This document shows positions 2,488-47,189 of a stretch of 64,000 nt of DNA, one piece after another. The position numbers were made by a program, and so were the translations under genes. The stretch's first letter is position 1. Every line of letters starts with the position of its first letter. The notes below the pieces were generated by a model, which searched no databases, was not told the DNA's origin, and saw nothing but the letters and a program-made list of their open reading frames with translations. The stretch comes from Solirubrobacterales bacterium (GTDB lineage: Bacteria > Actinomycetota > Thermoleophilia > Solirubrobacterales > 70-9): NCBI GenBank assembly GCA_036564135.1, contig DATCLC010000069.1:1529-65528 (forward strand), in the 5' to 3' direction.

Positions 2488-2817
2488 CTACCGCTTGTCG
2501 AGCTCGCGGACGATCACCGTGCGGCCGTCCTCGAGGCGGTAGACGCGGCCGATCTCGGTGCCGCGACCCACGACCCGCTCGCCCGGGTCGAGCTCGAGCT
2601 CACGCACCTGCTCCCCCGGGTCGGCCGTGACCTGCTCGGTGCGCTCGCGCTGCTCGGGGTCGTTCTGCTTGAGGATGTCCGTCATGTTCACCGAGGCGAG
2701 CGCGGCGAGCAGGAAGGCGACCGCGAGGACGATCCCGAGGTCGAACAGGTTAACGAGGCCGTCGAGCGGGTCGCCGGCCCGGTCCTCGTTGCGCCGCGCA
2801 CGCGCCGAGACCTTCAC
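2488..2817 (-). CDS. DUF2149-type small membrane protein, ExbD/TolR-like
   Basis: 109 aa. Basic N-terminus, then one TM with an embedded Asp (GLVNLFDLGIVLAVAFLLAAL), as in ExbD/TolR. GTG start overlaps the stop of the MotA/ExbB-like gene (GTGA 2814-2817). Confidence 0.7.
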   Translation of the reverse strand: MKVSARARRNEDRAGDPLDGLVNLFDLGIVLAVAFLLAALASVNMTDILKQNDPEQRERTEQVTADPGEQVRELELDPGERVVGRGTEIGRVYRLEDGRTVIVRELDKR

Positions 2818-3500
2818 GAGCCCCTCCCGGCGACAACCTGGGCAGTGCCGCGCGTGCCGGCGCCGTTCGCGCTCGCGGCAGGAGCCGACGGCGACGTCAG
2901 GCGGGCGGCCGCGTACTCGAGGTCCGAGTAGTCCTGCCCGTAGAGGCGGTCGCGCACGAGCGAGATCCCGAAGGCGATCGCGCCGACGAGCAGCCCGGCA
3001 ACGGTCACGCTGAACGCGACCCGCAGGTTCTCGGTGAGCTGCTGGACGTCTCCCTGGGCGAGGCCCGCCAGCGCAGGCGAGAGCGGGATCAGCGTACCCA
3101 TCAGGCCGAGCGCCGGCCCCATGCGCACCAGGATGCGGGTGCGCTCCAGCCGCCGCAGCGATCCGTACTCGAACTCGGCGAGCCGCTTCGCGATGCGCGC
3201 CTCGGCGTCGGGGCGGCGGACGTCGTCGAGGATCCCCATCGCCGTGGCCCGCGCCGGGGCGCTGTGGGCGATCGAGAGCAGCGCAGCCCGAGCCGCCGTC
3301 TCGTCGCCGCGGGCGAGCGCGTCGCGCGCCGCATCGACGGCCGCCTCGAGCCGGTGCAGGCTGCGCGGCGAGCGGCGGACCAGTTCGGTCACGAACGCAC
3401 CGGCCTCGACCAGCACGAGCGCGAGCGCGAGCAGCGCCGCGGCCAGCACCGGGATGCGGAGCGCCTCCGCGACGTCAAACAGGAGTTCCTCTACGACCAT
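2814..3500 (-). CDS. MotA/TolQ/ExbB family proton-channel protein
   Basis: 228 aa with multiple TM segments and the family C-terminal signature (MGPALGLMGTLIPL ... AFSVTVAGLLVGAIAFGISLV). ATG 3500 overlaps the preceding gene by 10 nt. Confidence 0.85.
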   Translation of the reverse strand: MVVEELLFDVAEALRIPVLAAALLALALVLVEAGAFVTELVRRSPRSLHRLEAAVDAARDALARGDETAARAALLSIAHSAPARATAMGILDDVRRPDAEARIAKRLAEFEYGSLRRLERTRILVRMGPALGLMGTLIPLSPALAGLAQGDVQQLTENLRVAFSVTVAGLLVGAIAFGISLVRDRLYGQDYSDLEYAAARLTSPSAPAASANGAGTRGTAQVVAGRGS

Positions 3501-4633
3501 GGGTTGATTCGTCCTTTCGGTTGCGGAAGCTTGCCGAGCTCGCGCAGGGTTCCCACGCCGAGCAGCGCGCCCGTCACCAGCGCGCCCCAGACGGCGCCGG
3601 GCACGGAGAAGCCGTTCTCCTCCTCGTTGAGCTGGCCGGTACGCGCCGAGATCGAGGGGCTCTCGGCGACGGCCCTCTTCGCGTTCTCGGGCGCGTCGAG
3701 CAGCTCGCCTTCGACCGGCTCGGTGCCCGGGGCGGGCTCGGGTTCGGGCCTCTTGTTCGGGGCCTCGGGCGCGCCGCGGTCATCCCCCACGCTCGCCGGG
3801 CCCGCGCCCTGGCCGTTGTCGTAGGGCCCGGAGTCCGGGGCGCGCTTGTGGCGGTTACGCCCGCCGCCCTCGCGATTGGGATCCTTCTTCCCCTTCTTCG
3901 GAGGAGGGCCCACCCGGACCTCGACGACCGTACTTCCTCCGCCTGAGCCCCCTACGGCGGACCCCTTGTACACGGTAAGGGCCACGTGGTAGCTCCCGGG
4001 CTTCCTGTACCGGTGCGTGACCACCCGCCCGGTGGCACCCGAGCCGTCATCGAACTGCCACACGTACACGAGTTCCTCGCCCGCCGGGCCCGTGGCCGTC
4101 GCGCTGAAGGTCACCTTCTCCCCCGGCCTCACCCGGTCAGGGCTCGCGGCGGCCTCGACCTCGATCACGGCGCCGTAGCGAAGGAGCACGCGCAAGGGGC
4201 TCGCTGCGAACGAGTCGCCGGCGTTTCGGTCCGAGCCGTTGGCGACCGGCCGCAGGAAGCGCGTCTGATCGGCTTCCTTCCAGACGACCGGCACCCTGCC
4301 GCCGTAGCCGTCCTCGACCTGGTGGATGTCGAGCACGACCCGGGACCCGTCGGGACGCACCACCTCGACGCGCTGGTAGTTGCCGCCAAAACCCGTCTGG
4401 CGGATGACCCACTCGAGCGAGAACCCGGTGACGGTCTCGGTGCGCTCGCCGGATGCCGAGCGGATCGTGTACTCCTGGTTGACGACGTCCTCTTCGCCAC
4501 GCGGCAGATCGACCTCCACGCTCCCCCCGGTGGGCGGCTCCACGACCACATCCGCGGCGCTCGCCCCCGGCGCGAACGCGAGGGGCAGGGCGAATGCCGC
4601 GGCAGCAGCGAGTGTCCGTAGCGCGCGTTTCAT
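3491..4633 (-). CDS. secreted PKD-domain protein with Pro/Glu/Lys-rich linker and C-terminal TM anchor
   Basis: ORF-track entry 3491..5209 trimmed to ATG 4633 (ATGA overlap with the upstream stop). Signal peptide MKRALRTLAAAAAFALPLAFAPGASA. PKD-like segment VTFSATATGPAGEELVYVWQFDDGSGATGRVVTHRYRKPGSYHVALTV. Linker PPPKKGKKDP...KRPEPEPAPGTEP. C-terminal TM VPGAVWGALVTGALLGVGTL. Confidence 0.75.
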   Translation of the reverse strand: MKRALRTLAAAAAFALPLAFAPGASAADVVVEPPTGGSVEVDLPRGEEDVVNQEYTIRSASGERTETVTGFSLEWVIRQTGFGGNYQRVEVVRPDGSRVVLDIHQVEDGYGGRVPVVWKEADQTRFLRPVANGSDRNAGDSFAASPLRVLLRYGAVIEVEAAASPDRVRPGEKVTFSATATGPAGEELVYVWQFDDGSGATGRVVTHRYRKPGSYHVALTVYKGSAVGGSGGGSTVVEVRVGPPPKKGKKDPNREGGGRNRHKRAPDSGPYDNGQGAGPASVGDDRGAPEAPNKRPEPEPAPGTEPVEGELLDAPENAKRAVAESPSISARTGQLNEEENGFSVPGAVWGALVTGALLGVGTLRELGKLPQPKGRINPWS

Positions 4634-5832
4634 TCGCCCCCCTCCGGCACGGTGAAGCTCACGGTCATCCATCCGAAGCCAGCGCCGGGCGGGTAGTAGC
4701 GCGCGAGGGGCGAGGCCTCGGGGCCGTGGGCGTTGGTGAGCGGGATTCGCTCGTACGTGTAGGTGACGCCCTCGGGCCCGGCCTCCACGGTCGGCTCGAG
4801 ATCGCGCCGAGCGAAGTCCCCGGTCACCGCGAGCCGCGAGCGCTCCGGGTCCCTCCAATACTCGACGTAGTCGTGGATCAGCCGGCCGCCGCCGTCCGCG
4901 GTCACCTCGACGATCGGGTCGTAGGCCCCGACGTCGAGGTGGTGCGCGGTCATCTCGAAGCGCACCGACCCGCGCAGCCGCAGGGAAGCGGCACCCGTCA
5001 CCGGGTCGAACCAGCCCTCCGCGAACGCCGCCGGCCCGTAGATGACCGTGTAGGGCAGCGGGACGGAGGGCGGAGGATCGCTGCACGGCGTCGAGAGGTG
5101 CGGCGGCGGGTACGCCACCGGCTCCTCGAGCACGGCGCCGTCCGCCGCGCTCACGCCAGGCCCACCTGCCGAGTGCACGTAGCAGACGAACGACTCGCGG
5201 ATCCGCCAATGGAGCTGCGCCTCGCTCACGTCGACCGCGGTCTCGGGCCGCTCGAGCAACTCTGGCTCCGCCTCGGAGGGCGGGGCGAGCGGGAGCGTGC
5301 CGCGCACCCGCACGCGCCCGAGGCCCCTCGGCAGCCGCCGTACGCGCAGCCTGCGCTGCAGCTCGCGGCGAAGGTAGCCGTCCAGTCGCAGCTTCCCCGA
5401 CGTATCGACCTCGCCGGTGATCGGGTTGAACGGCGCCACCTCATCGACACCGCGCAGGCGGCCGAGCGTGTACTGGGTACCGCGCAGCCTGGCGGTCAGC
5501 AGGGCACGTCCGGCCTGGATCGTCGCCGCGAGCGACTGCAGGCGCACGCTGCGGCGGCGCCTGCCCTTGCGCGCGGTCAGCTTCAGCGCGCCCTTCAGGC
5601 GCACGCGTGCGATCGAGCTCACCTCGCCGCTGCGGATCGGCAGCGTGACTGCGCGGCCGCGGCGCCTCGCCGGCGCCACCGCACGCAGCTTCACGTTCTG
5701 CGCACCCAAGGCGCGCGCCGCGTGCTTGCCGAGGCGGAGCTTTGCCGTGTTCGGCGAGTCCGCGTGCGCGGCGGCACCTCCCAGCAGGAGGGCCGCCACG
5801 ACGGCCGCCAAGAGCCCAGCGAGCAGCCTCAC
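4630..5832 (-). CDS. HtaA-domain-like secreted protein (second copy)
   Basis: C-terminal half has an HtaA-like core (AQLHWRIRESFVCYVHSAGG). Start set to GTG 5832 (GTGA overlap with the ATPase stop), giving a signal-like RLLAGLLAAVVAALLLGGAAAHA. Alternative start at 5871. Confidence 0.65.
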   Translation of the reverse strand: MRLLAGLLAAVVAALLLGGAAAHADSPNTAKLRLGKHAARALGAQNVKLRAVAPARRRGRAVTLPIRSGEVSSIARVRLKGALKLTARKGRRRRSVRLQSLAATIQAGRALLTARLRGTQYTLGRLRGVDEVAPFNPITGEVDTSGKLRLDGYLRRELQRRLRVRRLPRGLGRVRVRGTLPLAPPSEAEPELLERPETAVDVSEAQLHWRIRESFVCYVHSAGGPGVSAADGAVLEEPVAYPPPHLSTPCSDPPPSVPLPYTVIYGPAAFAEGWFDPVTGAASLRLRGSVRFEMTAHHLDVGAYDPIVEVTADGGGRLIHDYVEYWRDPERSRLAVTGDFARRDLEPTVEAGPEGVTYTYERIPLTNAHGPEASPLARYYPPGAGFGWMTVSFTVPEGGE

Positions 5833-6656
5833 CGCAGCTCCCCCTCGAGCTCGCGGGCGGCCCCGAGCCAATCGACGCGCAGCGCCGTGTGCCCGGCCTC
5901 GTCCGCGTCGAGGCGCGCCTCGACCTTCCAGACCTCGCGCAGGCGATCGGGCGCGAGCACCTCCCGCGGCTCGCCCGAGGCGACCGTGCGGCCATCCGAC
6001 ATCACCACCACCTCGTCGGCGAGCGCCGCGGCGAGCGCGAGGTCGTGCACGACCAGCAGCACCGCCAGTCCCTCCTCGGCGAGGTTTCGCAGGAGCCGGG
6101 CGACCGAGACGGTCGCCCCGAGGTCGAGCTGCGACGTGGGCTCGTCGGCCAAGAGCAGGGGCGCTTCCTGCGCGAGCGCGATCGCGATCTGCACGCGCTG
6201 GAGCTCGCCGCCGGAGAGCGTGGTGAGCCGGCGATGCGCGAACCGCGCGGTTCCGGTCCGCTCGAGCGCCCGCTCGACGGCGTCACGGTCGCGGCGGGTG
6301 GCGCGCGCGAGCGGCCGCAGGTGCGGCGAGCGGCCGATCCTGACCGCCTCCGCGACCGTGATCCCCTCGGGCACGCGCGGGCGCTGCGGGACGAACGCCC
6401 GTAGTCGGGCGAGGCGCCTGCCCCGCGTGCGGCGGACGTCGTGGCCCATGCACCGCACCTCGCCGCGCGCCGGGCGCAGGATCCCGGCCGCGGCGCGCGC
6501 GAACGTCGACTTGCCCGCGCCGTTCGGGCCCACCAGCGCGACGAGCTGACCCCGGTCCACGCGCAGGCTCGCGCCGTGGAGGATCGGCGCGCCGCCGAGG
6601 CGGACGTACACGTCGCGCGCGTCGAGCGCGGGCTCGTGTCCGCTCGCCACCGTCAC
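5829..6656 (-). CDS. hmuV: heme/siderophore ABC transporter ATP-binding protein
   Basis: Walker A GPNGAGKST, signature LSGGELQRV, Walker B LLLADEPTSQLD. ORF-track entry 5829..7235 trimmed to GTG 6656 (GTGA overlap with the permease stop). Confidence 0.85.
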   Translation of the reverse strand: MTVASGHEPALDARDVYVRLGGAPILHGASLRVDRGQLVALVGPNGAGKSTFARAAAGILRPARGEVRCMGHDVRRTRGRRLARLRAFVPQRPRVPEGITVAEAVRIGRSPHLRPLARATRRDRDAVERALERTGTARFAHRRLTTLSGGELQRVQIAIALAQEAPLLLADEPTSQLDLGATVSVARLLRNLAEEGLAVLLVVHDLALAAALADEVVVMSDGRTVASGEPREVLAPDRLREVWKVEARLDADEAGHTALRVDWLGAARELEGELR

Positions 6657-7657
6657 GCCGTCCTCCGCAGAAGCCACAGAAACAGCGGGACGCCCAGCAC
6701 GACCATGAACGGCCCGACGGGCAGCACGGTCGGGGCCGCCACGTTGCGGGCCAGCACGTCGCCGGCCGTAAGCAGCGCGGCGCCCGCCAGCGCCGAGGCG
6801 GGGATCACGAAGCTGTGGCTCGAGGTGCCCCCGGCCATGCGGACCAGGTGCGGGACGACCAGGCCGAGGAAGCTGAGCAGCCCGACCAGGGCCGCCGCCG
6901 CGGAGGCGAGCACGGCAGCGCAGATCCCCGCGCCCAGGCGGATCAGCTGCGGACGGCTGCCCAGCGAGGCCGCGACGTCGTCGCCGAGCGCGAGACGATC
7001 GAGCGGCCTGATCAGGACCAGGGCGAGCGCGAGCCCGACGACGAAGTACGGCCAAAACGACTCGAGGTCGATCCAGGCGTTCGGCGTGAGCCCGCCCGCC
7101 ATGAAGAAGACGACCGACTGGACGCGGTCCGGGAACGCCGTCATCAGACCGGTGGTGGCCGCGCCGAACAGGGCGGCGACGGCGATGCCGGCGAGGATCA
7201 CCTGGGTCACCCCGCCGCGGTTGCGCCCGGTCCACGCGATCGCGAAGACCACGGCCGCCGCGACCAAGCCGAACACCAGCGCGCCGACCGGCAGGAGCGC
7301 CACCGAGCCCGGGAAGGCCAAAAGGATAAGCGTGGCGCCGAACCCGGCGCCCGCGGTCACGCCGATCACGTCCGGCGAGGCGAGCGGATTGGCCAGCGCC
7401 CCCTGGAGCACGGCGCCGGCCACGCCCAGGGCCGCGCCCACGGCGACCGCCTCGACCGTGGTCGGCAGCCGGATGTCCATCACGATCTTGCGCTCGGGGC
7501 CATCGGCGAGGTCGCCGAACAGCGCGTCGATCACGGTGGCCAGCGGAATATCGACGGCCCCGATCGCAAGCGAGGCGCCCACGGCCGCAAGCAGCGCGAC
7601 GAGCGCGGCCACGATGACCGCGCTCCGGCGCGCGACTGTGGTGACCGTGAGCGCCAC
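6653..7657 (-). CDS. hmuU: FecCD-family heme/siderophore ABC permease
   Basis: 334 aa, polytopic, with typical FecCD/BtuC-like sequence (GAGICAAVLASAAAALVGLLSFLGLVVPHLVRMAGG). GTG start at 7657. Confidence 0.85.
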   Translation of the reverse strand: MALTVTTVARRSAVIVAALVALLAAVGASLAIGAVDIPLATVIDALFGDLADGPERKIVMDIRLPTTVEAVAVGAALGVAGAVLQGALANPLASPDVIGVTAGAGFGATLILLAFPGSVALLPVGALVFGLVAAAVVFAIAWTGRNRGGVTQVILAGIAVAALFGAATTGLMTAFPDRVQSVVFFMAGGLTPNAWIDLESFWPYFVVGLALALVLIRPLDRLALGDDVAASLGSRPQLIRLGAGICAAVLASAAAALVGLLSFLGLVVPHLVRMAGGTSSHSFVIPASALAGAALLTAGDVLARNVAAPTVLPVGPFMVVLGVPLFLWLLRRTA

Positions 7658-7664
7658 CGTCGGC

Positions 7665-8540
7665 TCAGTTCTTCAGGAACTGCCTGCGGACCATCCGGAT
7701 CGTGGCGGCCACGTCGGTCCCGGCCTGCAGCAGCGTGTTGTGCGAGGTGACGTACACGCGACCGTTCACGCCGGCGTTCGTCTCGCCGATGTAGGGGTGG
7801 TTGCGCAGGTACTCCGCGATCTCCTCGCGTTGGTCGGCGCGCCCGTGAGGCACGGCGATGACCACGTCGGGGTTGATGGCGAGGATCTTCTCGTTGGAGA
7901 GCTGCGCGAACCCGCCGCTGATCATGAAGCCCTCTCCATCGGGCGTCAGCCCGCCGGTGAGCAGACGCGCGCCCGCGGCGGTCACCAGGTCCCCGCCCCA
8001 GCTGTTGCGCAGGAACGCGTACGGCGTCTGCCCGACGCCCAGGATCATGAGCACCTTCGGGCGCGAGCGGATCTTGCGGCGCGCCTTCTTGATCGCGCGC
8101 TGGGTCTTGCGGGCGAGCTTCTTCGCACGCTTCGCCTTGCCCACGACCTTGCCGATCGCCCGGATCTTCTTCGGGACCTGGCGGACCCGAGCCGGATCCT
8201 TCTCGACGACCTTGATGCCGAGCCCGCGGATCGCCGAGTGGCCGGCGCGCCAGGTCCGCTCCGAGAAGACGAGGTCCGGATCGAGCTTTGCCAGCTGCTC
8301 GAGGTTCGGTCCGTTCGAGGCGTGCGAGAGCGGCAGCCGGATCGCGCCGCGCAGCTTGCGGTGGTACTTCACGGCGCCCGGGGTGAGGCCGACGGCGACC
8401 GGCTTGACGCCGAGCTTCACCAGCGTGTTCGCGGCGAACGGCGTGAGCGCCACGATCCGCTTCGGCTTCGCGGCCTCGGCCGGCGCGGCGAGCGCAGCGC
8501 TGGCGGCGAGAACTGCGAGGCAGGCGAGCGCGCGCCTCAT
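7665..8540 (-). CDS. hmuT: heme/siderophore periplasmic-binding-protein-type substrate-binding protein
   Basis: 291 aa. Signal peptide MRRALACLAVLAASAALAAPAEA. Family-typical RIVALTPFAANTLVKLG and LDPDLVFS motifs. ATGA overlap with the upstream gene. Confidence 0.8.
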   Translation of the reverse strand: MRRALACLAVLAASAALAAPAEAAKPKRIVALTPFAANTLVKLGVKPVAVGLTPGAVKYHRKLRGAIRLPLSHASNGPNLEQLAKLDPDLVFSERTWRAGHSAIRGLGIKVVEKDPARVRQVPKKIRAIGKVVGKAKRAKKLARKTQRAIKKARRKIRSRPKVLMILGVGQTPYAFLRNSWGGDLVTAAGARLLTGGLTPDGEGFMISGGFAQLSNEKILAINPDVVIAVPHGRADQREEIAEYLRNHPYIGETNAGVNGRVYVTSHNTLLQAGTDVAATIRMVRRQFLKN

Positions 8541-9367
8541 CGGGTCACCTCCCCCCGGGCGCGGCGGGCGAGCTCGACCGTCGCCTCGCGCAGCCCGGCC
8601 GCGTCGTTCACGGGCTGGGCGAACGCGACGCGGGCCGGCGCCTTGCCGCGCGGCGTCTCGATCGCCAGCTCGAGGCCGTAGCGGTCGATGCCCGTGCAGC
8701 GGGCGTGCGTCGCGTCCGGGTAGCCGGCCAGCGCCCGCGCGATGTTGAGCAGGGCGTCAGCGTGGTCGTCGTTCAGGTGCGCGGCCGCCGCCTGTGCCGC
8801 CGGCCGCGTGGGATCGGGCTGCGCTGCCGCGTACTCGGCGGCGCCGGCCGAGTCCATGCGGCCGTAGCCGCCGACCCAGCGCACGCGCTCGACGCGCAGG
8901 ACCCAAAGCGAGAAATCGCCGAAGCTCTCGTACGCGGCGGCGCTGGGCACGGCCTTCAGGTGAGCGTCGCGGGCGTGCTCGGCGAATTCACCCGTGGGGC
9001 GCTCCATGCTGCCGACGAGCGTGACGCGGCCGTGCGCGAGCGGCTCCTGGTCAGTCCACGCCTCAGCGACCACCAGGCTCGCCCGCGGGTCGCGCGCGAC
9101 GTTGCGGCCGTGCTCAGCCAGCGTCGAGAGCATGAACACGGGCGATCCGTCCGGCAGGCAGCCGTAGGTGGCCAACGACGCCCACGGGTTGCCGTCCGCG
9201 CTCAGGGTCGCGAGCGCGCCCGCCGAGTGCGCGGCGACCATCGTGCGCGCGTGCTCGGCAACGGTCGGCCCGGTCGCCGGCGCCGGCGGCGTCAACGGGG
9301 GCGGCGGCTCCGGGAGGTCGAGGCCCTCCGGGATGGCGTGCGGGTTGTAGGCCTGGATCGTCGTCAT
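8537..9367 (-). CDS. HugZ-like heme-utilisation protein (PNPOx-like split barrel plus DUF2470-like C-terminus)
   Basis: ORF-track entry 8537..9811 trimmed to ATG 9367 (ATGA overlap with the htaA stop). Contains GALATLSADGNPWASLATYG...ASLVVAE and a C-terminal HLNDDHADALLNIARAL. Confidence 0.7.
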   Translation of the reverse strand: MTTIQAYNPHAIPEGLDLPEPPPPLTPPAPATGPTVAEHARTMVAAHSAGALATLSADGNPWASLATYGCLPDGSPVFMLSTLAEHGRNVARDPRASLVVAEAWTDQEPLAHGRVTLVGSMERPTGEFAEHARDAHLKAVPSAAAYESFGDFSLWVLRVERVRWVGGYGRMDSAGAAEYAAAQPDPTRPAAQAAAAHLNDDHADALLNIARALAGYPDATHARCTGIDRYGLELAIETPRGKAPARVAFAQPVNDAAGLREATVELARRARGEVTR

Positions 9368-10287
9368 CGCGCCCTCGCGCCAACCAGCGTCGTCTTCACC
9401 GTCGTGTCGACCTCGGCGCCCGGGCCCGCGCCGACCCAGAGGTCGAACTTCACGGTTCCCTTCCTGCCGGCGAGCTTCTTGGCGACGCGCTTCGTGACCT
9501 GGACGACGATCTGCGCGCGCTTGCCGTCGCCGACCCGGTCGGGGGCCTTCACCTTGGCCTTGAACTGCCGCTTGCCGACCCGGATCTTCGTCCGCTTTGG
9601 AGCGGCGACCTCGCAGGGGCCGGTCTTGCAGCGCACCTTCGCGACCGCGGCCTTCGCACGCTTGCCGAGGCGCGCCTGCCCGACGACCTTGAGGCCGGGC
9701 GTCTCGCCGAACCCGGCCACTACCGAGACCGGGTCCATCGTCGTTTCGGCCGGGTAGCGGCCGAACACCGGCACGCCGTTCTCGGCGAGCGTCGCGGGAA
9801 TCGAGCTCCACTCGATCGTGGTCGGGCCGAACTCCGGATCGACCGCCTCGACATCCAGGTTCACGAGGTCCCGGTTGTCGTCGATCGGGTCGCCCCCGCC
9901 CATCGGCACGCTCTGCGCGTCCGCGTAGAGCTTGGCGCCCGTCGGCGCGAGCACCACGCGCGGGTTCGCGACGGTGATGTTGAGCGCTCCGCCATGGGCG
10001 AAGAAGTTGACCGAGCCGGTCGCCTGGACCTCGCCGAGCCCCGTCTCGGTGTCGAGGGTGCCGCTCGCGATCGGGAAGCGGTACGTGCCGTCCTCGTTCT
10101 CAGTCGCGCCGCCCGAGAGCGTGATCTCCCCCGCGCCGCCGATGTAGGTGCGGAAGCTCTCCTTCACGCCCCAGACGGCCCAACCGCCCTTCACCTCGAC
10201 GGTCTCGGCGCTCGCTGTCACGGCGAACGCGCCCCCCAGCGCCACGCTCGCCGCCGCGAGCATCGTCGTCCTCAGAAATGCTTTCAA
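9364..10287 (-). CDS. htaA: HtaA-domain heme-binding protein
   Basis: Signal peptide plus the canonical HtaA core GGWAVWGVKESFRTYIGG...GTYRFPIASG. TTG start 10287 preceded by AAGGAGGGA. Confidence 0.8.
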   Translation of the reverse strand: MKAFLRTTMLAAASVALGGAFAVTASAETVEVKGGWAVWGVKESFRTYIGGAGEITLSGGATENEDGTYRFPIASGTLDTETGLGEVQATGSVNFFAHGGALNITVANPRVVLAPTGAKLYADAQSVPMGGGDPIDDNRDLVNLDVEAVDPEFGPTTIEWSSIPATLAENGVPVFGRYPAETTMDPVSVVAGFGETPGLKVVGQARLGKRAKAAVAKVRCKTGPCEVAAPKRTKIRVGKRQFKAKVKAPDRVGDGKRAQIVVQVTKRVAKKLAGRKGTVKFDLWVGAGPGAEVDTTVKTTLVGARAR

Positions 10288-10351: not shown

Positions 10352-10379
10352 TTAGGGCGCCCTAATTAGGGCACCCTAA
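10352..10379. promoter_or_regulatory. tandem 14-bp palindromes, candidate metalloregulator operator of the heme operon
   Basis: TTAGGGCGCCCTAA (perfect palindrome, 10352-10365) is immediately followed by TTAGGGCACCCTAA (10366-10379), 65-92 nt upstream of the htaA start. The TTAGG/CCTAA arms resemble the outer arms of DtxR/IdeR iron boxes. Confidence 0.5.
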
Positions 10380-20440: not shown

Positions 20441-20980
20441 ATGGCCCAAACGCAGAAGAAGTCTTCAGGCGGACGCAGCTCCTCGAGCCGCACGCGCTCG
20501 AAGAGCACGACGGCCAAGTCGAGGAACGGGAGCGCTCGCCAGAGCTCGGCGACGCGGTCGTCCCCGGACGCGAACGGGCAGAGCAGGCTCGAGTCCGTTG
20601 CCGACACCGTGACGAGCGGCGCGAAGAGCGCGGCGGAGACGGTCGGCAACGCGAGCTCCAAGGCCAAGACCGGCCTGCTCGCGGGCGGCGCTGCCGCGGT
20701 CGGGCTCGCGGCCACCGCGATCGCGACCCGCAAGGCCCGCAGCAAGCCGAAGGTGCTCGGCGTCGAGCTTCCGCGCCGCAAGGGCCACGGCATCTCCTCG
20801 TGGACGAAGGGGATCTCGCTGCCGAAGCGCGGCGGTATGCGCAAGCAGACGCAGCGCGCCGCCACCAAGGTCACCGGAGCCGCGGACGCGGCCGACCGCA
20901 TCGCGCTTCGGCTGAGCAGCGTCGCGCGCGGCGTCCGGCAGGTGAGCGAGACGGCGAACGACGCCGCCAAGAAGGCCTAA
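20441..20980 (+). CDS. basic Ser/Lys/Arg-rich single-pass membrane protein (gvp-flanking paralogue 1)
   Basis: 179 aa. Disordered basic N-terminus, Gly/Ala-rich TM LLAGGAAAVGLAATAIA, C-terminal helix. The 21-nt RBS/start block AGGAGGGCCGGGATGGCCCAA (20429-20449) is identical to 26809-26829. Confidence 0.65.
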   Translation: MAQTQKKSSGGRSSSSRTRSKSTTAKSRNGSARQSSATRSSPDANGQSRLESVADTVTSGAKSAAETVGNASSKAKTGLLAGGAAAVGLAATAIATRKARSKPKVLGVELPRRKGHGISSWTKGISLPKRGGMRKQTQRAATKVTGAADAADRIALRLSSVARGVRQVSETANDAAKKA

Positions 20981-20999
20981 GCCGAAAGGGCTTCGCCCC

Positions 21000-21458
21000 G
21001 TGGCGCAGCGCAAGCCGGTCGACGCCCAGCCCGCCGCCGAGGCGAAGCGGGCGCTCGCTCAGTGGCGCCTCGCGCTGCGCTACGCGGCGGCGGCCGCGCG
21101 ACCCGGCGCCGAAGCCGCGGCGCGAGTCGTGCGTGCCACCGGCGCTGACCTCGCGAGCCGCGCGGTCGAACGCCTGCGGGCCCTAGGCGAGGAGCGGGCT
21201 GATCAGGGCCAAGCGGCGGAGTCGCCCGACGAGGGCGCGGCGGAGGACGAGCGCGAGCCCGACGGCCCGGCGGCCGAGGAAGACGGCGCGCCGCCCGCCG
21301 ACGAGGAGCCAGGCGCTGAGGCCGACGGCACCGACGAGGAGCCCGACGCCGACGAGCGCGACGGGGGCGCCGACCCCCTGCGCGCCGGCTTCGAGCACGC
21401 CTACAGCGACGAGGTCGAGAACTACGAGCACCGAGACGCGTACGCGAACACGCGCTGA
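21000..21458 (+). CDS. hypothetical acidic protein
   Basis: 152 aa. Ala/Arg-rich helical N-terminus and a strongly acidic tail (EDEREPDGPAAEEDG...DEEPDADERDGG). High GC3. Sits directly upstream of gvpA. Confidence 0.5.
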   Translation: MAQRKPVDAQPAAEAKRALAQWRLALRYAAAAARPGAEAAARVVRATGADLASRAVERLRALGEERADQGQAAESPDEGAAEDEREPDGPAAEEDGAPPADEEPGAEADGTDEEPDADERDGGADPLRAGFEHAYSDEVENYEHRDAYANTR

Positions 21459-21494
21459 CGCGCGCTGACCCGGCAAGCCAGGAAAGGAATCCAG

Positions 21495-21941
21495 ATGGCC
21501 ACGGCTATGCAGTACGGAAGCGGGACCCGTCCCTACCGCGGCGGGAGCGGCTACGTAGCGCGCTCCTCCTCGAGCGGGCTCTATGACGTCCTCGAGCTGA
21601 TCCTCGACAAGGGGCTCGTGATCGACGTGTTCGTGCGCGTCTCGCTGATCGGAATCGAGATCCTCACCGTGGACGCGCGCATCGTGATCGCGAGCGTCGA
21701 CACCTACCTGCGTTTCGCGGAGGCGGTCAACCGCCTCGACCTGATGGCGACCGAGACCCAGGGCCTGCCCGAGATGATGGACGGCCTCACCGAGAGCGGC
21801 GCCTCCAGCAAGACCAAGGGCGCGATCACCGGCGCGCGCGAGGCGCTCTTCGGTGACGACGAGGAGGTAGAGGGCGACAAGGAGGCCCAGGGCTCGCGCA
21901 AGCGCAGCTCGAGCACGCGACGGAGCAGGTCGAGCTCCTGA
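21495..21941 (+). CDS. gvpA: gas vesicle structural protein, actinomycete GvpA type (GvpA/J family)
   Basis: Core [50 protein letters not shown], followed by a long hydrophilic C-terminal extension as in streptomycete GvpA. Confidence 0.9.
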
Positions 21942-21955
21942 GCCCGGGAGGCGCG

Positions 21956-22717
21956 GTGGCAAGCGACGGCGTTCCCCAATACGTCTACGGCGTCGTGCCG
22001 GCTGACGGGCGCGGCCGGGCGCGGGCGCCCGGGATCGGCGGCGAGGGGGTGCGCGTGATCCGGGCCGGCCGGGTGGGCGCGCTCGCGAGCCCCGTGCCCG
22101 ACGCCGACGGCGAACTCCCGGCGGGCCGCGAGGAACTGCGCGCCCACGCCCAGGTGCTCGAGGCGGCGCTCGCCGAGTTCGCGGCCGTCCTGCCGATGCG
22201 CTTCGGCATCGTGATGCCGAGCGACGCGGCGGTGCGCGACGAGTTGCTGGGGCCCCACAGCGCCCAGCTCGAGGCCCAGCTCGACGAGCTCGCGGGCAAG
22301 TTCGAGATGGGCCTGAAGGCGCTGTACGACGAGGACGCGATCCTGCGCGAGATCGTCACGGAGAACCGGGAGGCGCGCGCACTGCGCGCGGCGATCGCGG
22401 CCGCGCCGGCCGACGCCACCTACCCGCAGCGGATCCGCCTCGGCGAGCTGATCGCCGCCGGGCTCGACGAGCGGCGGCTCGTAGACGAGCGCGCGATCGC
22501 CGAACGCCTGGAGCGGTTCGCGATCGCCGTCGACCTGCGCCCGCCGATCCACGAGCGCATGGCGCTGAACGCCGCCTTCCTGCTGGACCGCGAGCGCTTG
22601 GGGCGCTTCGACGAGGAGCTCGAGCTGCTCGCCGCCGAGAGCCACCCGCGCATCGGCTTCCGGCTCACCGGCCCCCTCCCCCCGCACAGCTTCGTCGAAC
22701 TTTCGGTGGAGCGCTGA
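21956..22717 (+). CDS. gvpF: gas vesicle protein GvpF/GvpL family
   Basis: 253 aa. N-terminal YVYGVV motif and family-typical layout; ends PLPPHSFV. Confidence 0.85.
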   Translation: MASDGVPQYVYGVVPADGRGRARAPGIGGEGVRVIRAGRVGALASPVPDADGELPAGREELRAHAQVLEAALAEFAAVLPMRFGIVMPSDAAVRDELLGPHSAQLEAQLDELAGKFEMGLKALYDEDAILREIVTENREARALRAAIAAAPADATYPQRIRLGELIAAGLDERRLVDERAIAERLERFAIAVDLRPPIHERMALNAAFLLDRERLGRFDEELELLAAESHPRIGFRLTGPLPPHSFVELSVER

Positions 22718-22718
22718 G

Positions 22719-23024
22719 ATGGGTCTCTTCAAGGAGCTCGCGCTGCTCCCGCTCGCGCCGCTGCGCGGCACCGTCTGGGTGGCCGAGCAGCTCCGCGACG
22801 AGGCCGACCGCCGCCTCTACGACGAGGAGAGCATCAAGCGGGAACTGCTCCAGCTCGAGCTCGACCACGAGGCTGGGCTCGTGGGCGACGCCGAGCGCGA
22901 GCGGCTCGAGCGCGATCTGTTCGAGCGCCTCGCGGTGGCCCGCGCCCGCGCGGTGGAGGAGGCGGAGCTGGCCGCCTATCCGCCCGTTGAACCCGACCCG
23001 GAAGGGGTGAGCGAACGTGGCTGA
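22719..23024 (+). CDS. gvpG: gas vesicle protein GvpG
   Basis: 101 aa. MGLFKELALLPLAPLRGTVWVAEQLRDEA... is typical of GvpG. Confidence 0.85.
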   Translation: MGLFKELALLPLAPLRGTVWVAEQLRDEADRRLYDEESIKRELLQLELDHEAGLVGDAERERLERDLFERLAVARARAVEEAELAAYPPVEPDPEGVSERG

Positions 23025-23346
23025 GCGCAAACCGAGCTCCAAGTCGCGCAGCGGCTCCTCGTCGCGGCGCGGCGGGGGCTCCAAGAGCAACCGCGGCGCC
23101 GCCGAGATCGCGCGTCACGCGGCGCGCGAGCTGCAGGGCCTGATCGGCCGCCCGGTCGAAGCCGTCACCGGCATCGAGCGCGACGGCAAGGAATGGACCG
23201 TCACGGTGGAGGTGGTTGAACTCGAGCGGATCCCGAACACGACCGACGTGCTGGGCGTCTACGAGGTGACGCTCGACGCCGACGGCGAGCTCATCGGCAC
23301 GCAGCGCACGCACCGCTTCTATCGCTCTGAGGCGGGTGAGGTCTAG
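23017..23346 (+). CDS. gvpO: gas vesicle protein GvpO
   Basis: 109 aa. Basic N-terminus, then GRPVEAVTGIERDGKEWTVTVEVVELERIPNTTDVLGVYEV. Confidence 0.85.
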   Translation: MAERKPSSKSRSGSSSRRGGGSKSNRGAAEIARHAARELQGLIGRPVEAVTGIERDGKEWTVTVEVVELERIPNTTDVLGVYEVTLDADGELIGTQRTHRFYRSEAGEV

Positions 23347-23825
23347 TGGCCGAGCAGCGCTCCGAGTACGAGCTCTACGACCGCCGCCAGCGGCCGCCGG
23401 CGGCCGTCCAGTCCGCGGGCGGCCCAGCGAACCTCGCCGACATCCTCGAGCGGGTGCTCGACAAGGGCATCGTGATCGCGGGCGACATCCAGATCAACCT
23501 GCTCGACATCGAGCTGCTCACGATCAAGCTCCGGCTGCTGGTCGCCTCGGTCGAGCGGGCGCAGGAGATGGGGATCAACTGGTGGGAGTCGGACCCCTCC
23601 CTGTCGCGCGACGCGCGGCGGCTCGAGCGGGAGAACGAGGACCTGCGCGAGCGCCTCGAGCGGCTCGAGCGGATCGCTGGACTGCCCGAGCCCGCCCCCG
23701 GCGAGGAGATCGTCTTCGAGGAACATCGCGAGGAGGAGGTCCGAGCCGGTGGCGAGCGGGAAGTCACCGAGTCGCACCATCGCGAGGTTCGCGAGCGCGA
23801 CGAGCGGAACGAGAAGGGGCGATGA
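23346..23825 (+). CDS. gvpJ: gas vesicle protein GvpJ (GvpA/J family)
   Basis: Core NLADILERVLDKGIVIAGDIQINLLDIELLTIKLRLLVASVERAQEMG. GTG start shares its first base with the gvpO stop. Confidence 0.9.
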   Translation: MAEQRSEYELYDRRQRPPAAVQSAGGPANLADILERVLDKGIVIAGDIQINLLDIELLTIKLRLLVASVERAQEMGINWWESDPSLSRDARRLERENEDLRERLERLERIAGLPEPAPGEEIVFEEHREEEVRAGGEREVTESHHREVRERDERNEKGR

Positions 23826-24871
23826 GCACGGAGCGCGAGGAGCTCGAGCGCCTGCGCACGGCGCTCTCCGCGTTCGGTATGGAGCGCGCCGACGAGCTCC
23901 TCGCGTCTGCGCGCGACGAGGCTCTAGAGCGGGCGCGCTTGATCCTCGTCACCGAGATGACGAGGGCCCTGCTCGACGGCGCCGGCGCGCGGCTGGGGTC
24001 GGGCCAACGGGCGCGCGACGGCCGGCGCCGCTCCCCCTCCCCCGCGCCCTCACCCCCGCCGGCCGACGCGTCCGATACCGCGCTCTACGTGTACGGCGTC
24101 GGGTCCAGCGAAGCCGAGGAGCTCGACGGCGCTGTCCGCGAGGGGCTCGGGGTCGCGAGCGCGCCGCCGTTCACGCTGCGCGAGGGCGAGCTGGCGGCGA
24201 TCGCCAGCACGGTCCCGCTCGCCGAATTCGACGAGGGCCGGCTGCGCGAGAACCTGAACGACGTCGAATGGCTCGAGCGCGTGGCGCGCGCCCACGAGGA
24301 AGTGCTCGAGCGGGCGCTGCGGGCGGCGACCGTCGTGCCCCTGCGGTTGTGCACGATGTACCGCGACGCGCAGCACGTGCGCGCGATGCTGGCGCGCGAG
24401 GAGCCGGTCTTCCGCGAGGCGCTCGCCCGCCTGCGCGGCAAGACGGAATGGGGCGTAAAGATGATCGCCGAGCCCGGCGCGCTTGAGCGCGCGCTGAACG
24501 GGGCCGAGCACGAGCGCCTGGAGGACGTGCCGACCGGGGTCGCGTACCTGCGGGAGCGCGGCAGACAGGCTCGCGCCCGCGAGGATCTCGACGAGCTCGC
24601 GGCGCGCTTGGCGGCAGACGTCCACGACGAGCTCGCCGCCCGCGCTGAGGAGGCGCTGCTCAACCCCCTCCAGAACCCCGAGGTGAGCGGCCATGAGGGC
24701 GACATGCTGTTGAACGGCGCCTACCTCGTCGCCGACGCGGAGCTCCCGGCGTTCCGCCAGCAGTGCGAGCGGCTCACAGGAGCGTTCGCGCCGCGCGGGG
24801 TGGTGGTCGAGCTGACCGGCCCCTGGCCCCCGTACAACTTCGTGCGCAGCACCCTGGAGACGTCGGCGTGA
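23822..24871 (+). CDS. gvpL: gas vesicle protein GvpL/GvpF family (long form)
   Basis: ORF-track entry 23336..24871 trimmed to ATG 23822 (ATGA overlap). ALYVYGV motif; ends GPWPPYNFV. Confidence 0.85.
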   Translation: MSTEREELERLRTALSAFGMERADELLASARDEALERARLILVTEMTRALLDGAGARLGSGQRARDGRRRSPSPAPSPPPADASDTALYVYGVGSSEAEELDGAVREGLGVASAPPFTLREGELAAIASTVPLAEFDEGRLRENLNDVEWLERVARAHEEVLERALRAATVVPLRLCTMYRDAQHVRAMLAREEPVFREALARLRGKTEWGVKMIAEPGALERALNGAEHERLEDVPTGVAYLRERGRQARAREDLDELAARLAADVHDELAARAEEALLNPLQNPEVSGHEGDMLLNGAYLVADAELPAFRQQCERLTGAFAPRGVVVELTGPWPPYNFVRSTLETSA

Positions 24872-25212
24872 CCGCGGAGCGGGACGCGATCGACCGCAGC
24901 CGAAGGGCGGCCGCCGCTCGCCGCGAGCGCACGCGCGCCGCTTACGACGCTCGCCGGGCCGCCGACCGCCGGCGGCACGACGCGAGCGTCAGGCGCGCGC
25001 GGCTCGCGCGCGAGGTTTCTCTCGTCGACCTCGTAGATCGCCTCCTCGACGGCGGCGTGGTCATCCACGGCGACATCACGATCGCCGTCGCGGACGTCGA
25101 CCTGCTCTACGTGGGCCTGCGGGCGCTGGTCTCCTCGGTCGAGAACATGGAGCGCGAGCTCGGCGCTGGGCTCTCCGCCAAGGGCCCGGCGCTCGCGGCG
25201 ACGCCGAGGTAG
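24868..25212 (+). CDS. gvpS: small GvpA/J/M/S-family gas vesicle protein
   Basis: GTGA overlap with the gvpL stop. Core SLVDLVDRLLDGGVVIHGDITIAVADVDLLYVGLRALVSSVE. Confidence 0.8.
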   Translation: MTAERDAIDRSRRAAAARRERTRAAYDARRAADRRRHDASVRRARLAREVSLVDLVDRLLDGGVVIHGDITIAVADVDLLYVGLRALVSSVENMERELGAGLSAKGPALAATPR

Positions 25213-25214
25213 CC

Positions 25215-25883
25215 GTGCTCTACGTGTACGCGATCACCGATCCAGGCGCCTCCACCGAGGCGCCGGGCATCGGCGGCGCCCGGGTGACCGCCGTGCGCGA
25301 GGGGGATCTCCAGGCGCTCGTCAGCGCGCACGAACGGCTCGAGCCGGCGACCGGGGTCGATCGGCTGTGGGAGCACGAGGCCGTCGTCGAGGGCGCCGGG
25401 GCAGGCGGCGCGGGGGTGCTGCCGCTGCGCCTGGACAGCGCGCTCGCGGGCGAGGACGAGGTGCGGGCGCTGCTGCGCGAGCGCGCGGATGAGTTCGGGA
25501 CCGTCCTGCGCCGGGTGCGGGGCGCGGCCGAACTGAGCGTGCGCGTGGGCCTCGCCGTCGCCGAGGAACCGGCGCCGGTCGCGCCCGGGACCGGCGGAGC
25601 GGGCACCGCGTACATGCTCGGGCGCCTCGAGCGGGCGCGGCGAGCCGAGGATCTGGTCCGCGCGGTGCACGAGCCGCTCGCCGAGCTCGCGCGCGAGCAC
25701 GCGCGCCTGGGGCCGACGCTCTCCGACCGGCGCGGCCAGTTCCGGCTCGCCTATTTGGTCGAGCGCGGCGCGGTGGAACCCTTCAGGGCCCGCGTGGAGG
25801 AGCTCGCGGAGTCGCAGCCGGAGCTGCAGCTGACCTGCACGGGGCCGTGGCCGCCCTACAGCTTCGTGGGGAGTGCCGCGTGA
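25215..25883 (+). CDS. third GvpF/GvpL-family protein
   Basis: 222 aa. LYVYAI N-terminus; ends GPWPPYSFV, like the other two family members. Confidence 0.8.
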   Translation: MLYVYAITDPGASTEAPGIGGARVTAVREGDLQALVSAHERLEPATGVDRLWEHEAVVEGAGAGGAGVLPLRLDSALAGEDEVRALLRERADEFGTVLRRVRGAAELSVRVGLAVAEEPAPVAPGTGGAGTAYMLGRLERARRAEDLVRAVHEPLAELAREHARLGPTLSDRRGQFRLAYLVERGAVEPFRARVEELAESQPELQLTCTGPWPPYSFVGSAA

Positions 25884-26236
25884 GCCCTGCCGCCGAGCGC
25901 GACCGCCTGCTCGCGGGCCACGGCGACCTCGACCTCTTCGGGCGCGAGCTCGCGCGCCTGGACTCCGCGCTGCGCGGCCGCTTGAACGCCGACCGCGAAA
26001 GCCTCGAGAAGGGCCTCGCGCAGCTCGTGCTCACCCTCGTCGAGGTCATCCGCCAGCTGCTTGAGCGCCAGGCTCTGCGGCGCGTCGAGGGCGGCTCACT
26101 CTCGGCGGCCGAGGTGGAGCGGCTGGGCGAGACATTCCTGCTGCTCGCCGAGCGCATGGACGAGCTCAAGGAGGCATTCGGCCTGGAGGACGAGGACCTG
26201 AATCTGGACCTGGGGCCCCTGGGGAAGCTGCTGTGA
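25880..26236 (+). CDS. gvpK: gas vesicle protein GvpK
   Basis: GTGA overlap with the upstream stop. Core LEKGLAQLVLTLVEVIRQLLERQALRRVEGGSLSAAEVERLGETF. Confidence 0.85.
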   Translation: MSPAAERDRLLAGHGDLDLFGRELARLDSALRGRLNADRESLEKGLAQLVLTLVEVIRQLLERQALRRVEGGSLSAAEVERLGETFLLLAERMDELKEAFGLEDEDLNLDLGPLGKLL

Positions 26237-26261
26237 GGAAAGCCACGGAAGGAGGACGCGT

Positions 26262-26495
26262 ATGAACGGCGAGGAGTTGCGGGCGCAGTACTTCGACGTC
26301 CTGCTCGACCGGATCACCGAGACGCGCTACCCGAGCAAGGAGCTGCTCGACCGCGCCGAGAACCTCGCGTACACGCGCGAGCAGGCGGAGCGGCTCGTGA
26401 CGTACCTGATCGCGACCGTGCAGGGCGTGCGCTACCCGAGCCACCAGCTCATGGACCGCGTCGAGCGGATCCTCTTCGGGATACCCGGGCGCTAG
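26262..26495 (+). CDS. 77-aa protein with internal duplication (gvp-associated, unknown function)
   Basis: GGAAGGAGGA SD upstream of the ATG. Two ~33-aa repeats, each ending in RYPS-x2-L-[LM]-DR-[AV]-E (RYPSKELLDRAE / RYPSHQLMDRVE). Confidence 0.6.
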   Translation: MNGEELRAQYFDVLLDRITETRYPSKELLDRAENLAYTREQAERLVTYLIATVQGVRYPSHQLMDRVERILFGIPGR

Positions 26496-26820
26496 CCCGG
26501 GCAGCGTGGGCTCGCTCGCGCGCGGCGCGATGCGCAGCGCGCCCGCGGCGCTTGGCGCGCCGCACCTGCCGCGCGACCCGTGAGCGGGCGCGGCGCAGGC
26601 GTCGCTTCGCGCGCCGGTCCCGGTCCGCGCTCTGGCGCCGCACCCTTCGCCGCAGCTCGGCGGAGTGCTCGGCGAGCTCGGCGTTGCGCCGCGCGGCGCG
26701 CATTCGGTGAGCTTGTGGAGACGCCATGGCTGCGGGGGCGTTTTCACCCCGGTTGCAGGTCGTTTACCCGGAATTTCGCGCGGGTAGCCGGAGCGCACCG
26801 CGAACCGAAGGAGGGCCGGG

Positions 26821-47115: not shown

Positions 47116-47189
47116 TCGGGGCGACTGGATTTGAACCAGCGACCTTTCGGCCCCCAGCCGAATGCGCTACCAGACTGCGCCACGCCCCG
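47116..47189 (-). tRNA. tRNA-Pro (GGG)
   Basis: Minus-strand cloverleaf: CGGGGCG TG GCGC AGTCTGGTA GCGC A TTCGG CTGGGGG CCGAA AGGTC GCTGG TTCAAAT CCAGT CGCCCCG A. No encoded CCA. Confidence 0.9.

Follow-up and report, generated by a model that had tools for sequence, protein, structure and literature searches.

We analysed a 64,000-nt stretch of the genome of a Solirubrobacterales bacterium (contig DATCLC010000069.1), here called the window, with a G+C content of ~72%. Nine open reading frames (ORFs), all on the minus strand at 2488-10287, encode an HtaA/ABC-type heme relay followed by a PKD-domain protein, a member of the MotA/TolQ/ExbB family and a small DUF2149 protein. These last three genes, the trio of this report, recall the stators that are driven by the proton-motive force (PMF). 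The host class, Thermoleophilia (Actinomycetota), is by established description a Gram-positive, single-membrane lineage; the textbook role of ExbB/ExbD-type motors is to bring inner-membrane energy to an outer membrane. The features, in the direction of transcription, are these:

10352-10379, no strand: candidate operator, two tandem 14-bp palindromes TTAGGGYRCCCTAA, ~65 nt upstream of the htaA start
9364-10287, minus strand: htaA, secreted HtaA (CR-domain) heme-binding protein (Pfam HtaA, 1.8e-39)
8537-9367, minus strand: cytoplasmic heme-binding or heme-degrading protein of the HugZ/HOZ family, split-barrel plus DUF2470 (Pfam PNPOx_N, CREG, DUF2470)
7665-8540, minus strand: hmuT-like substrate-binding protein (PBP) (Pfam Peripla_BP_2, 1.7e-33)
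6653-7657, minus strand: hmuU-like FecCD-type permease (Pfam FecCD, 4.7e-78)
5829-6656, minus strand: hmuV-like ABC ATPase (Pfam ABC_tran, 1.2e-31)
4630-5832, minus strand: second, divergent secreted HtaA-domain protein (Pfam HtaA, 6e-9, 37.1 bits against a cut-off of 24)
3491-4633, minus strand: PKD protein, proposed force-transducing subunit (Pfam PKD, 2.3e-16)
2814-3500, minus strand: MotA/TolQ/ExbB-family putative proton-channel subunit of the HmuU type, 228 aa (Pfam MotA_ExbB)
2488-2817, minus strand: DUF2149 (PF09919; COG4744), small bitopic protein of the HmuV type (Pfam, 3.5e-16)
2367-2397, no strand: GC-rich hairpin with a 12-bp stem and a 7-nt loop (sequence and fold)

Gene junctions and operon extent

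The array and all eight of its junctions read exactly as given in the initial annotation, which had been made from the bare sequence. Six junctions are 4-nt overlaps: ATGA at 9364-9367, at 8537-8540 (between the hugZ-like gene and hmuT) and at 4630-4633 (between the second HtaA gene and the PKD gene), and GTGA at 6653-6656, 5829-5832 and 2814-2817 (between the MotA-like and DUF2149 genes). The hmuT and hmuU genes are separated by a 7-nt gap (7658-7664), and the PKD and MotA-like genes share a 10-nt overlap, ATGGTCGTAG, at 3491-3500; in most related loci this last junction is a 4-nt overlap. No terminator-like site was found between the genes of the operon; the sole candidate lies within hmuU and scores below shuffle expectation. 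With overlapping or 7-nt junctions throughout, a single upstream operator and a terminal hairpin, the nine genes are one operon.

All nine products score above the Pfam gathering thresholds in the families that the initial annotation had named, so that its gene identities are upheld. None of the nine receives an equivalog-level name from NCBIfam.

The heme-relay and importer genes

The htaA gene starts with TTG at 10287, with AAGGAGG 10 nt upstream. Its product has a normal signal peptide and a basic C-terminal tail, with no C-terminal TM anchor, and matches the solved CR domains of Corynebacterium glutamicum HtaA/HtaB (6jsa, E 3.6e-13). The heme-ligand Tyr and His are both kept relative to 6jsa: SFRTYI against SFQNYI (SF..Y) and FFAHGG against FTGHGG (F..HGG). 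The entries 6jsc and 6jsd, whose sole difference from 6jsa in the aligned stretch is an Ala at that His position, are presumably a His mutant. The second HtaA protein has an Arg/Leu-rich N-terminal half and an HtaA domain at residues 205-345, again lacks a TM anchor, and retains the Tyr of SFVCYV and the His of TAHH; its gene lies directly 5′ of the PKD gene in most related loci. By sequence inspection neither HtaA protein has a C-terminal hydrophobic segment. Since both are without a membrane anchor they may behave like hemophores, which makes the Has system a useful analogy.

The HugZ-like protein matches the heme-binding MSMEG_6519 of Mycobacterium smegmatis (PDB 5bnc) over its full length (E 9.4e-82), and also plant HOZ heme proteins, with weak NCBIfam matches to HugZ/HutZ. 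Among the ABC components the top NCBIfam models are for heme, corrinoid and siderophore, all below equivalog cut-off. For the HmuT-like protein the best characterised match is IsdE (heme), then BtuF, and the HmuV-like ATPase matches heme and corrinoid ABC ATPase models at 1e-67 to 5e-71; these too are below cut-off.

In relatives a 99-aa gene of the ABM family ('x99'; PF03992) adjoins the PBP gene (2527-2826 in locus L001, and in most class-A loci); we take this to be the fold family of IsdG and MhuD. An ABM gene, a stand-alone DUF2470 gene, or both, precede the PBP gene in these relatives, at the place where the window has the fused PNPOx+DUF2470 protein. This replacement implies that the heme-receiving or heme-degrading enzyme is interchangeable in the Thermoleophilia lineage.

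Judging from the HtaA ligands, the MSMEG_6519 match, the ABC scores and the ABM neighbours, heme is the best-supported substrate. As the initial annotation proposed, this is an HtaA/ABC heme system of the Corynebacterium type, here in a lineage described as monoderm.

The MotA/ExbB-like protein

The MotA-like protein scores 31.7 bits against the Pfam MotA_ExbB model (gathering score 22.9; E 1.4e-7). More than 2800 homologues were found, and PF01618 is present in all 120 homologues among the matches listed. An AlphaFold2 model built from a 66-sequence alignment (pLDDT 86) has three TM helices and a helical cytoplasmic domain. When this model was compared with the PDB by Foldseek, the 49 best matches were all ExbB, TolQ, PomA or MotA chains, with ExbB first; the best, Escherichia coli ExbB (5zfp_B), covers ~213 of the 228 residues with a TM-score of 0.53-0.55 and probability 1.0. 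As modelled, the protein has the ExbB/TolQ-type fold: TM1, a long cytoplasmic helical domain and a TM2-TM3 hairpin.

Across 66 homologues the TM2 sequence GPALGLMGTLIPLSP and the TM3 sequence AFSVTVAGL are invariant, T136 and T166 included. By hhalign T136, in the ExbB-type GxxGT motif of TM2, falls on T148 of E. coli ExbB, at 3% probability. T148 and T181 of ExbB are the pore-lining Thr residues that face the partner's Asp.

The DUF2149 partner

The DUF2149 gene always lies immediately 3′ of the MotA-like gene. Its product scores 59.8 bits against the DUF2149 profile (threshold 27.1), which also matches 34 of 34 aligned relatives. Its basic N-terminus is cytoplasmic, its TM helix bears Asp26 close to the cytoplasmic side, and an external beta-rich domain of ~60 aa follows. 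In the 34-member alignment P17, N23, G90 and G98 are invariant and D16, D26 and Y93 are found in at least 90% of members; the external motif G.G..vG.VYrL.DGR.vyV is conserved. The single N-terminal TM helix, the Asp near its cytoplasmic end and the gene order are all as in proteins of the ExbD/TolR type. By architecture and position DUF2149 would act as an ExbD/TolR/MotB-type partner, but it cannot be filed in that family.

The window protein is without the long C-terminal tail seen in many DUF2149 homologues (P0121, P0123, P0126, P0142 and others), where 40-100 aa are rich in Pro, Thr, Ser and Gly. With such tails the small subunit itself may reach into the wall in some lineages.

We think it very improbable that the pair works as a channel for ions or metals (such as Fe2+, or in proton leak or sensing), as a signalling device, or as a flagellar or Zorya-type stator found here by chance. 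The MotA/ExbB family does include stators of flagella and of defence systems, and motile Thermoleophilia exist. However, the best fold matches are to 3-TM ExbB/TolQ rather than to 4-TM MotA, no PADLOC defence model matches any of the four distal proteins, and no flagellar or Zor genes lie nearby. An OmpA-like peptidoglycan-binding domain was not found in DUF2149. The synteny and the operator described below moreover tie the pair to heme genes.

The PKD protein as third component

The PKD protein consists, in order, of a signal peptide, a beta-rich N-domain of ~125 aa with the conserved motifs Y.lRS..GE, FLRP and D.N, the PKD domain, a linker, the tetrapeptide ARTG, a TM helix and a short basic tail. 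The linker of ~100 aa is disordered and rich in Pro, Gly and charged residues; it holds the motif GPDR.GGG...APD.G and the stretch RPEPEPAPGTEP. The AlphaFold2 model, made from a shallow alignment because the word-indexed homologue search gave only 8 sequences, is confident for residues 28-241, disordered for 249-345 and helical for 347-368. Foldseek matches were convincing for the PKD domain alone (PKD/Ig); a sulfite-oxidase match (TM-score 0.25) is distrusted.

In 45 homologues the C-terminal motif 'aaR.G ... P.aa.g.L....LLg.GAl.E', with a Gly-rich TM helix and a terminal Glu, is conserved. A juxtamembrane A-R-[TS]-G stands 12-20 residues before this helix and the Glu stands at the helix's cytoplasmic end, in the window (3491-3650, the last ~50 codons of the PKD gene) and in the 45 homologues. 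ARTG was weighed as a sortase-E (LAxTG) signal, but this was rejected, since neither the Leu nor the Thr is conserved and an acidic spacer of 12-20 residues precedes the helix.

The initial annotation had treated this PKD/linker/TM protein as a bystander. It is instead a conserved third component, and by analogy likely a force transducer: its build resembles the TonB/TolA layout of an anchor helix, a Pro-rich spacer of the PEPEP type and distal domains, here with the anchor at the C-terminus.

Candidate operator and likely terminator

The palindrome TTAGGGYRCCCTAA occurs twice in the whole 64 kb, against 0.06 expected, and both matches are at 10352-10379. The box, ATTAGGGYRCCCTAAT, was present in 51 of the 84 related loci that were fetched, nearly always just 5′ of the HugZ-like gene, of the PBP gene, of an HtaA-PKD-MotA-DUF2149 sub-operon, or of the MotA-like gene. 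Its consensus across Thermoleophilia is aTTAGGGYRCCCTAAt (14-16 bp), with preferred spacings between copies of 14, 28 and 39 bp. It tracks the HtaA-PKD-MotA-DUF2149 genes or the MotA-like gene despite rearranged gene order, lying between the divergent PBP and MotA-like genes in L078 and L081 and immediately 5′ of the MotA-like gene in L067. The box was not found at loci with the MotA_ExbB+DUF2149 pair alone. To judge by its sequence and placement the palindrome may mark a lineage-specific regulon in Thermoleophilia, plausibly responsive to iron or heme.

The DtxR/IdeR iron box is 19 bp long with TTAGG/CCTAA half-sites. We rejected the assignment of the palindrome to this class: the half-sites are shared, but the geometry is 14-bp and not 19-bp.

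At the other end of the operon the hairpin at 2367-2397 separates the DUF2149 gene from a convergent glutamine synthetase III gene and is followed on the plus strand by the T-rich run TTTCCTTTT. From these sequence features it is likely a bidirectional terminator that closes the operon.

Distribution, synteny and selection

With each GTDB species represented by one genome, a profile scan yielded at least 582 DUF2149 loci. The best 80 of these were inspected and were all from Thermoleophilia: Solirubrobacterales, Conexibacter (including the cultured C. stalactiti) and Thermoleophilaceae. Synteny was counted in the 62 species-representative loci for which 8 kb or more of sequence lay upstream. 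PBP/FecCD genes occur together with PKD-MotA-DUF2149 in 44 of the 62, and HtaA is also present in 40 of those 44; the conserved synteny of the pair with FecCD-type ABC genes, a check proposed with the initial annotation, thus holds in this class. Four of the 62 loci have the PKD protein without heme genes and 14 have neither by strict criteria. At two of these 14, L064 (Conexibacter stalactiti KCTC 39840) and L011, the upstream gene again encodes a protein with signal peptide, PKD domain and C-terminal TM helix. The gene arrangement is not due to chance: the order PBP-FecCD-ABC-HtaA-PKD-MotA-DUF2149 is seen again in the 44 heme-linked loci of Thermoleophilia species.

In a tree of the MotA-like proteins the heme-linked arrangement is found in several deep clades and the pair-only variant forms a clade of its own. 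The pair-only loci (L006, 5703-9986; L063, L069, L049 and L048) are without the PKD partner, heme genes and operator. They adjoin, and are often divergent from, metH, for B12-dependent methionine synthase, a second tetrapyrrole-flavoured context. No cobalamin riboswitch was found beside these heme-less pairs flanking metH, or in the window. In locus L015 (10844-19792), and similarly in L016, L023, L035 and L038, three secreted proteins of ~770-990 aa with no Pfam match are encoded 3′ of DUF2149 on the same strand.

The ratio of nonsynonymous to synonymous substitution rates (dN/dS) was taken from the comparison with the nearest relative, L003, alone, since at greater divergence it is inflated by saturated synonymous sites that are biased in third-position G+C. 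The MotA-like gene has a value of 0.18 and DUF2149 one of 0.24, beside 0.10 for FecCD, 0.13 for the ABC ATPase and 0.23 for the HugZ-like gene; values of 0.47-0.56 mark the faster evolution of the HtaA and PKD proteins, which are exposed. Purifying selection at 0.18-0.24 means that the MotA-like and DUF2149 genes are not relics.

Searches by phmmer with Olivibacter and Geotalea queries for TonB-dependent receptor (TBDR), TonB, CobN-like and DUF2162 proteins gave no matches in the window and ~1.4 Mb of flanking sequence from ~80 Thermoleophilia species; the positive controls returned 82 ORFs for MotA and 83 for DUF2149. Nor did any protein of the operon match TonB_C or Plug/TonB_dep_Rec in Pfam. 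The empty searches are what a non-functional or horizontally acquired fragment of a Ton or Hmu system would leave, and a 2025 survey considers incomplete Ton systems in Actinobacteria likely non-functional (PMC12204202). Such a vestige is nevertheless hardly credible here, given the more than 2800 homologues, the invariant TM2 and TM3 in 66 sequences, the dN/dS of 0.18-0.24, the translational coupling, the dedicated partner protein, and the operator conserved across many species and clades. The conserved, selected trio runs against that recent dismissal of Ton parts in monoderm Actinobacteria as probably non-functional. The link of the stator-like genes to heme uptake, as first proposed, is sustained by conserved synteny, a shared operator, translational coupling and purifying selection.

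In most relatives the HtaA genes and PKD-MotA-DUF2149 form one sub-operon with its own operator, apart from the ABC genes. This arrangement bears on the possibility, which we hold to be unlikely, that the trio serves in surface-protein handling, in which the PMF would drive export, positioning or release of the anchor-less HtaA proteins through the wall and not the transfer of heme. The models for it, by analogy, would be GldLM, which powers type-9 secretion, and Tol-Pal, which acts on the envelope. Besides the sub-operon, it would suit the lack of a Corynebacterium-style C-terminal membrane anchor in both HtaA proteins, the similarly fast rates of HtaA and PKD, and a general envelope role at the loci where the trio occurs without heme genes. 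On the other hand, the HtaA signal peptides are ordinary Sec signals and no extra secretion step is known to be needed in monoderms, no secretion-system components lie nearby, and at four heme-linked loci no HtaA was detected beside the trio and the ABC genes.

Relation to Hmu-type pairs

By sequence the pair belongs to the MotA_ExbB+DUF2149 (HmuU/HmuV-type) subfamily and is not a canonical ExbB/ExbD pair. The earlier description of it as ExbB/ExbD-like is right as to the ExbB-like fold but not as to a generic ExbB/ExbD assignment. In the hmuYRSTUV operon of Bacteroidota, HmuU is annotated as MotA/TolQ/ExbB and HmuV as DUF2149 (PG1555/PG1556 in Porphyromonas gingivalis; BT_0491/0492 in Bacteroides thetaiotaomicron). 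When iron or heme is limiting, P. gingivalis, P. intermedia and B. thetaiotaomicron strongly induce the genes for HmuU and HmuV. Reviews and the 2025-2026 papers on HmuS assume that HmuU/V power the TonB-dependent HmuR, or leave their role 'unclear'. Since the present host has a single membrane, this published role cannot apply here. DUF2149 (COG4744) is near-universal in methanogens and is linked to TolQ there.

The window's MotA-like protein is directly related to MotA_ExbB proteins that are linked to CobN-like genes, with 30% identity to that of Olivibacter (residues 3-213 of 228, E 2e-28) and 27% to that of Geotalea (residues 3-196 of 228, E 1e-22). The Olivibacter pair used as query detects every Thermoleophilia pair, and DUF2149 detects the CobN-linked pairs directly. 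The gene order is TBDR - MotA_ExbB - DUF2149 - CobN-like in Olivibacter and TBDR - DUF2162 - MotA_ExbB - DUF2149 - CobN-like - TonB - NikR in Geotalea. The CobN-like proteins encoded 3′ of DUF2149 in these two (L083, 10339-14316; L084, 10326-14297) have the same topology as the window's PKD protein: a signal peptide, a large ectodomain, a low-complexity stretch, a C-terminal TM helix and a basic tail, in the two C-termini that were inspected.

This shared topology could mean that the pair energises a C-terminally anchored tetrapyrrole-processing protein, which would be HmuS in diderms and archaea and here the PKD protein, acting as a catalytic or heme-handling client and not as a transducer. 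We give this reading only a small share of our confidence. It would account for methanogens, which lack an outer membrane, keeping the DUF2149-TolQ linkage, and extracytoplasmic class-I chelatase homologues cannot use their usual ATP-driven AAA+ partners. But in B. thetaiotaomicron lysate and membrane-fraction assays iron was removed from heme with no need for ATP, the N-domain of the PKD protein is without chelatase-like features, and the topological likeness comes from only two CobN C-termini.

A broader, tentative possibility, which we rate well short of even, is that MotA_ExbB+DUF2149 is a distinct and ancient class of PMF motor whose client is a type-I, C-terminally anchored extracytoplasmic tetrapyrrole handler and not TonB and an outer-membrane receptor. 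In Thermoleophilia this client would be the PKD protein with HtaA; in Bacteroidota, Desulfobacterota and methanogens it would be the CobN-like HmuS. If this is true, proton flow powers the extraction of metals or tetrapyrroles outside the cytoplasm, as AAA+ ATPases do for class-I chelatases inside it, and the current model in which HmuU/V power HmuR is wrong or incomplete.

A possible motor for the heme relay

The reading that we favour, with slightly more confidence than doubt, is that PKD-MotA-DUF2149 is a PMF-driven motor with the PKD protein as its output subunit, which in a monoderm with a wall supplies energy to a step of the HtaA heme relay outside the cytoplasm. The two secreted HtaA-domain proteins would capture heme outside the cell, heme would cross the membrane through the PBP-FecCD-ABC importer, and the cytoplasmic protein of the MSMEG_6519/HugZ type would receive or degrade it. 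A MotA/ExbB-like oligomer would surround the TM helices of DUF2149, where Asp26 would bind the proton. The PKD protein would dock onto this motor by its C-terminal TM helix, and its Pro-rich linker, PKD domain and N-terminal domain would extend into the wall. Conformational work could then reach the HtaA relay, where heme would be stripped from tight donors, apo-HtaA ejected, or heme handed to the PBP. The trio would have a role akin to that of TonB/HasB, minus the outer membrane. The analysis itself shows what the genes are, a fold like that of ExbB, conserved Asp and Thr residues in the TM helices, translational coupling, synteny, the shared operator, purifying selection, and the absence of TBDR, TonB and CobN nearby. 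Assembly of the motor, its use of the PMF, its physical coupling to the PKD protein and the energised heme step are inferred.

Several points weigh against this proposal. ABC importers need no additional energy for membrane passage, and since they are self-sufficient in this, the step that would be energised is undefined. The trio or the pair is found away from heme genes in 18 of the 62 loci, including that of the cultured Conexibacter stalactiti, so the module is not intrinsically heme-specific. PDB sequence searches with the MotA-like protein, with DUF2149 and with a 15-sequence profile gave no significant match to ExbB or ExbD (best ExbB E 0.63, best MotA E 0.7), which leaves the fold comparison alone as decisive for the MotA-like protein. 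None of the 34 DUF2149 members matches Pfam ExbD (PF02472) at E ≤10, the only matches being weak ones to DUF4330, a PDB sequence search with DUF2149 gave no match, and hhalign places D26 on D25 of E. coli ExbD over 18 columns in the TM helix only, at 11% probability. Of the label 'ExbD/TolR-like, with Asp in the TM' given earlier to DUF2149, the TM Asp (D26, in at least 90% of members) stands, but homology to the ExbD family does not. The N-domain of the PKD protein has no informative structural match, so nothing there points to binding of heme or HtaA, and its C-terminal, type-I anchor helix has the opposite topology to TonB.

Significance

Two things were already known: the genes had been annotated automatically, and the link of MotA_ExbB+DUF2149 to heme comes from Bacteroidota. 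The suggestion that the combination of stator and heme relay is uncharacterised therefore survives for the monoderm HtaA/ABC context, but not for the pair's link to heme, which the Bacteroidota hmu operon already provides. In the literature searched, HtaA and ExbB are found together in reviews alone, and DUF2149 is mentioned only for Bacteroidota, for Pseudomonas and in archaeal surveys. What appear to be new are the conservation and co-regulation of the pair in a monoderm HtaA/ABC heme operon, the lack of an outer-membrane client, and a TonB-like partner of the PKD type.

This suggests that PMF-energised nutrient capture extends to monoderms. To judge from gene content, the pair can clearly work without a TonB-dependent receptor or HmuS, and the locus offers a natural experiment on the function of HmuT, HmuU and HmuV in the medically important hmu operon of Bacteroidota. 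It also provides a compact three-gene module and a candidate regulon in an abundant, poorly studied class of soil bacteria.

Other features of the window

A gas-vesicle cluster occupies 20441-27360 on the plus strand, with GvpA/J-like genes at 21495-21941 and 23346-23825, three GvpF/L genes at 21956-22717, 23822-24871 and 25215-25883, and several small basic or acidic ORFs. Four clustered tRNA genes and one nearby, at 47116-48183 (minus strand) and 50184-50267 (plus strand), are unrelated to the heme operon.

Comparison with known systems

With the Hmu system of Bacteroidota the window operon shares both the HmuU and HmuV families, in the same order, tightly coupled and within a heme-acquisition operon. 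The Hmu operon is iron-regulated, and the window operon has a candidate operator upstream. The TonB-dependent HmuR, the CobN-like HmuS and the HmuT/DUF2162-type protein of Hmu were not found in the window locus. What it has instead are the HtaA proteins, an importer of the ABC type, a HugZ-type protein in the cytoplasm and a partner built of PKD domain, linker and TM helix.

The Ton and Has systems likewise combine a channel protein of the ExbB fold, a small bitopic partner with a TM Asp, and a third protein that crosses the membrane once and has globular domains beyond a Pro-rich (PEPEP) spacer. The link to soluble proteins that bind heme is reminiscent in particular of the hemophore system HasA-HasR-HasB. 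The window trio differs in being without an outer membrane, a TonB-dependent transporter and a TonB C-terminal domain, in that the anchor of its third protein is a C-terminal helix (type I) where TonB has an N-terminal one, and in that DUF2149 is not detectably homologous to the periplasmic domain of ExbD.

The HtaA-HmuTUV system of Corynebacterium (with HtaB/ChtA) has the same HtaA CR domains with Tyr and His, and the same order of PBP, FecCD and ABC genes adjoining htaA; with the candidate operator upstream, regulation by iron or heme is plausible in the window as well. HtaA is held there by a C-terminal TM anchor, which the window proteins lack. Where Corynebacterium has HmuO, the window has a protein of the MSMEG_6519/HugZ type and its relatives have an ABM-family protein, presumably IsdG-like; the 19-bp DtxR box of Corynebacterium, in turn, has its counterpart in the 14-bp palindrome. 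To this otherwise familiar heme relay the window operon adds a trio that resembles a PMF-driven motor.

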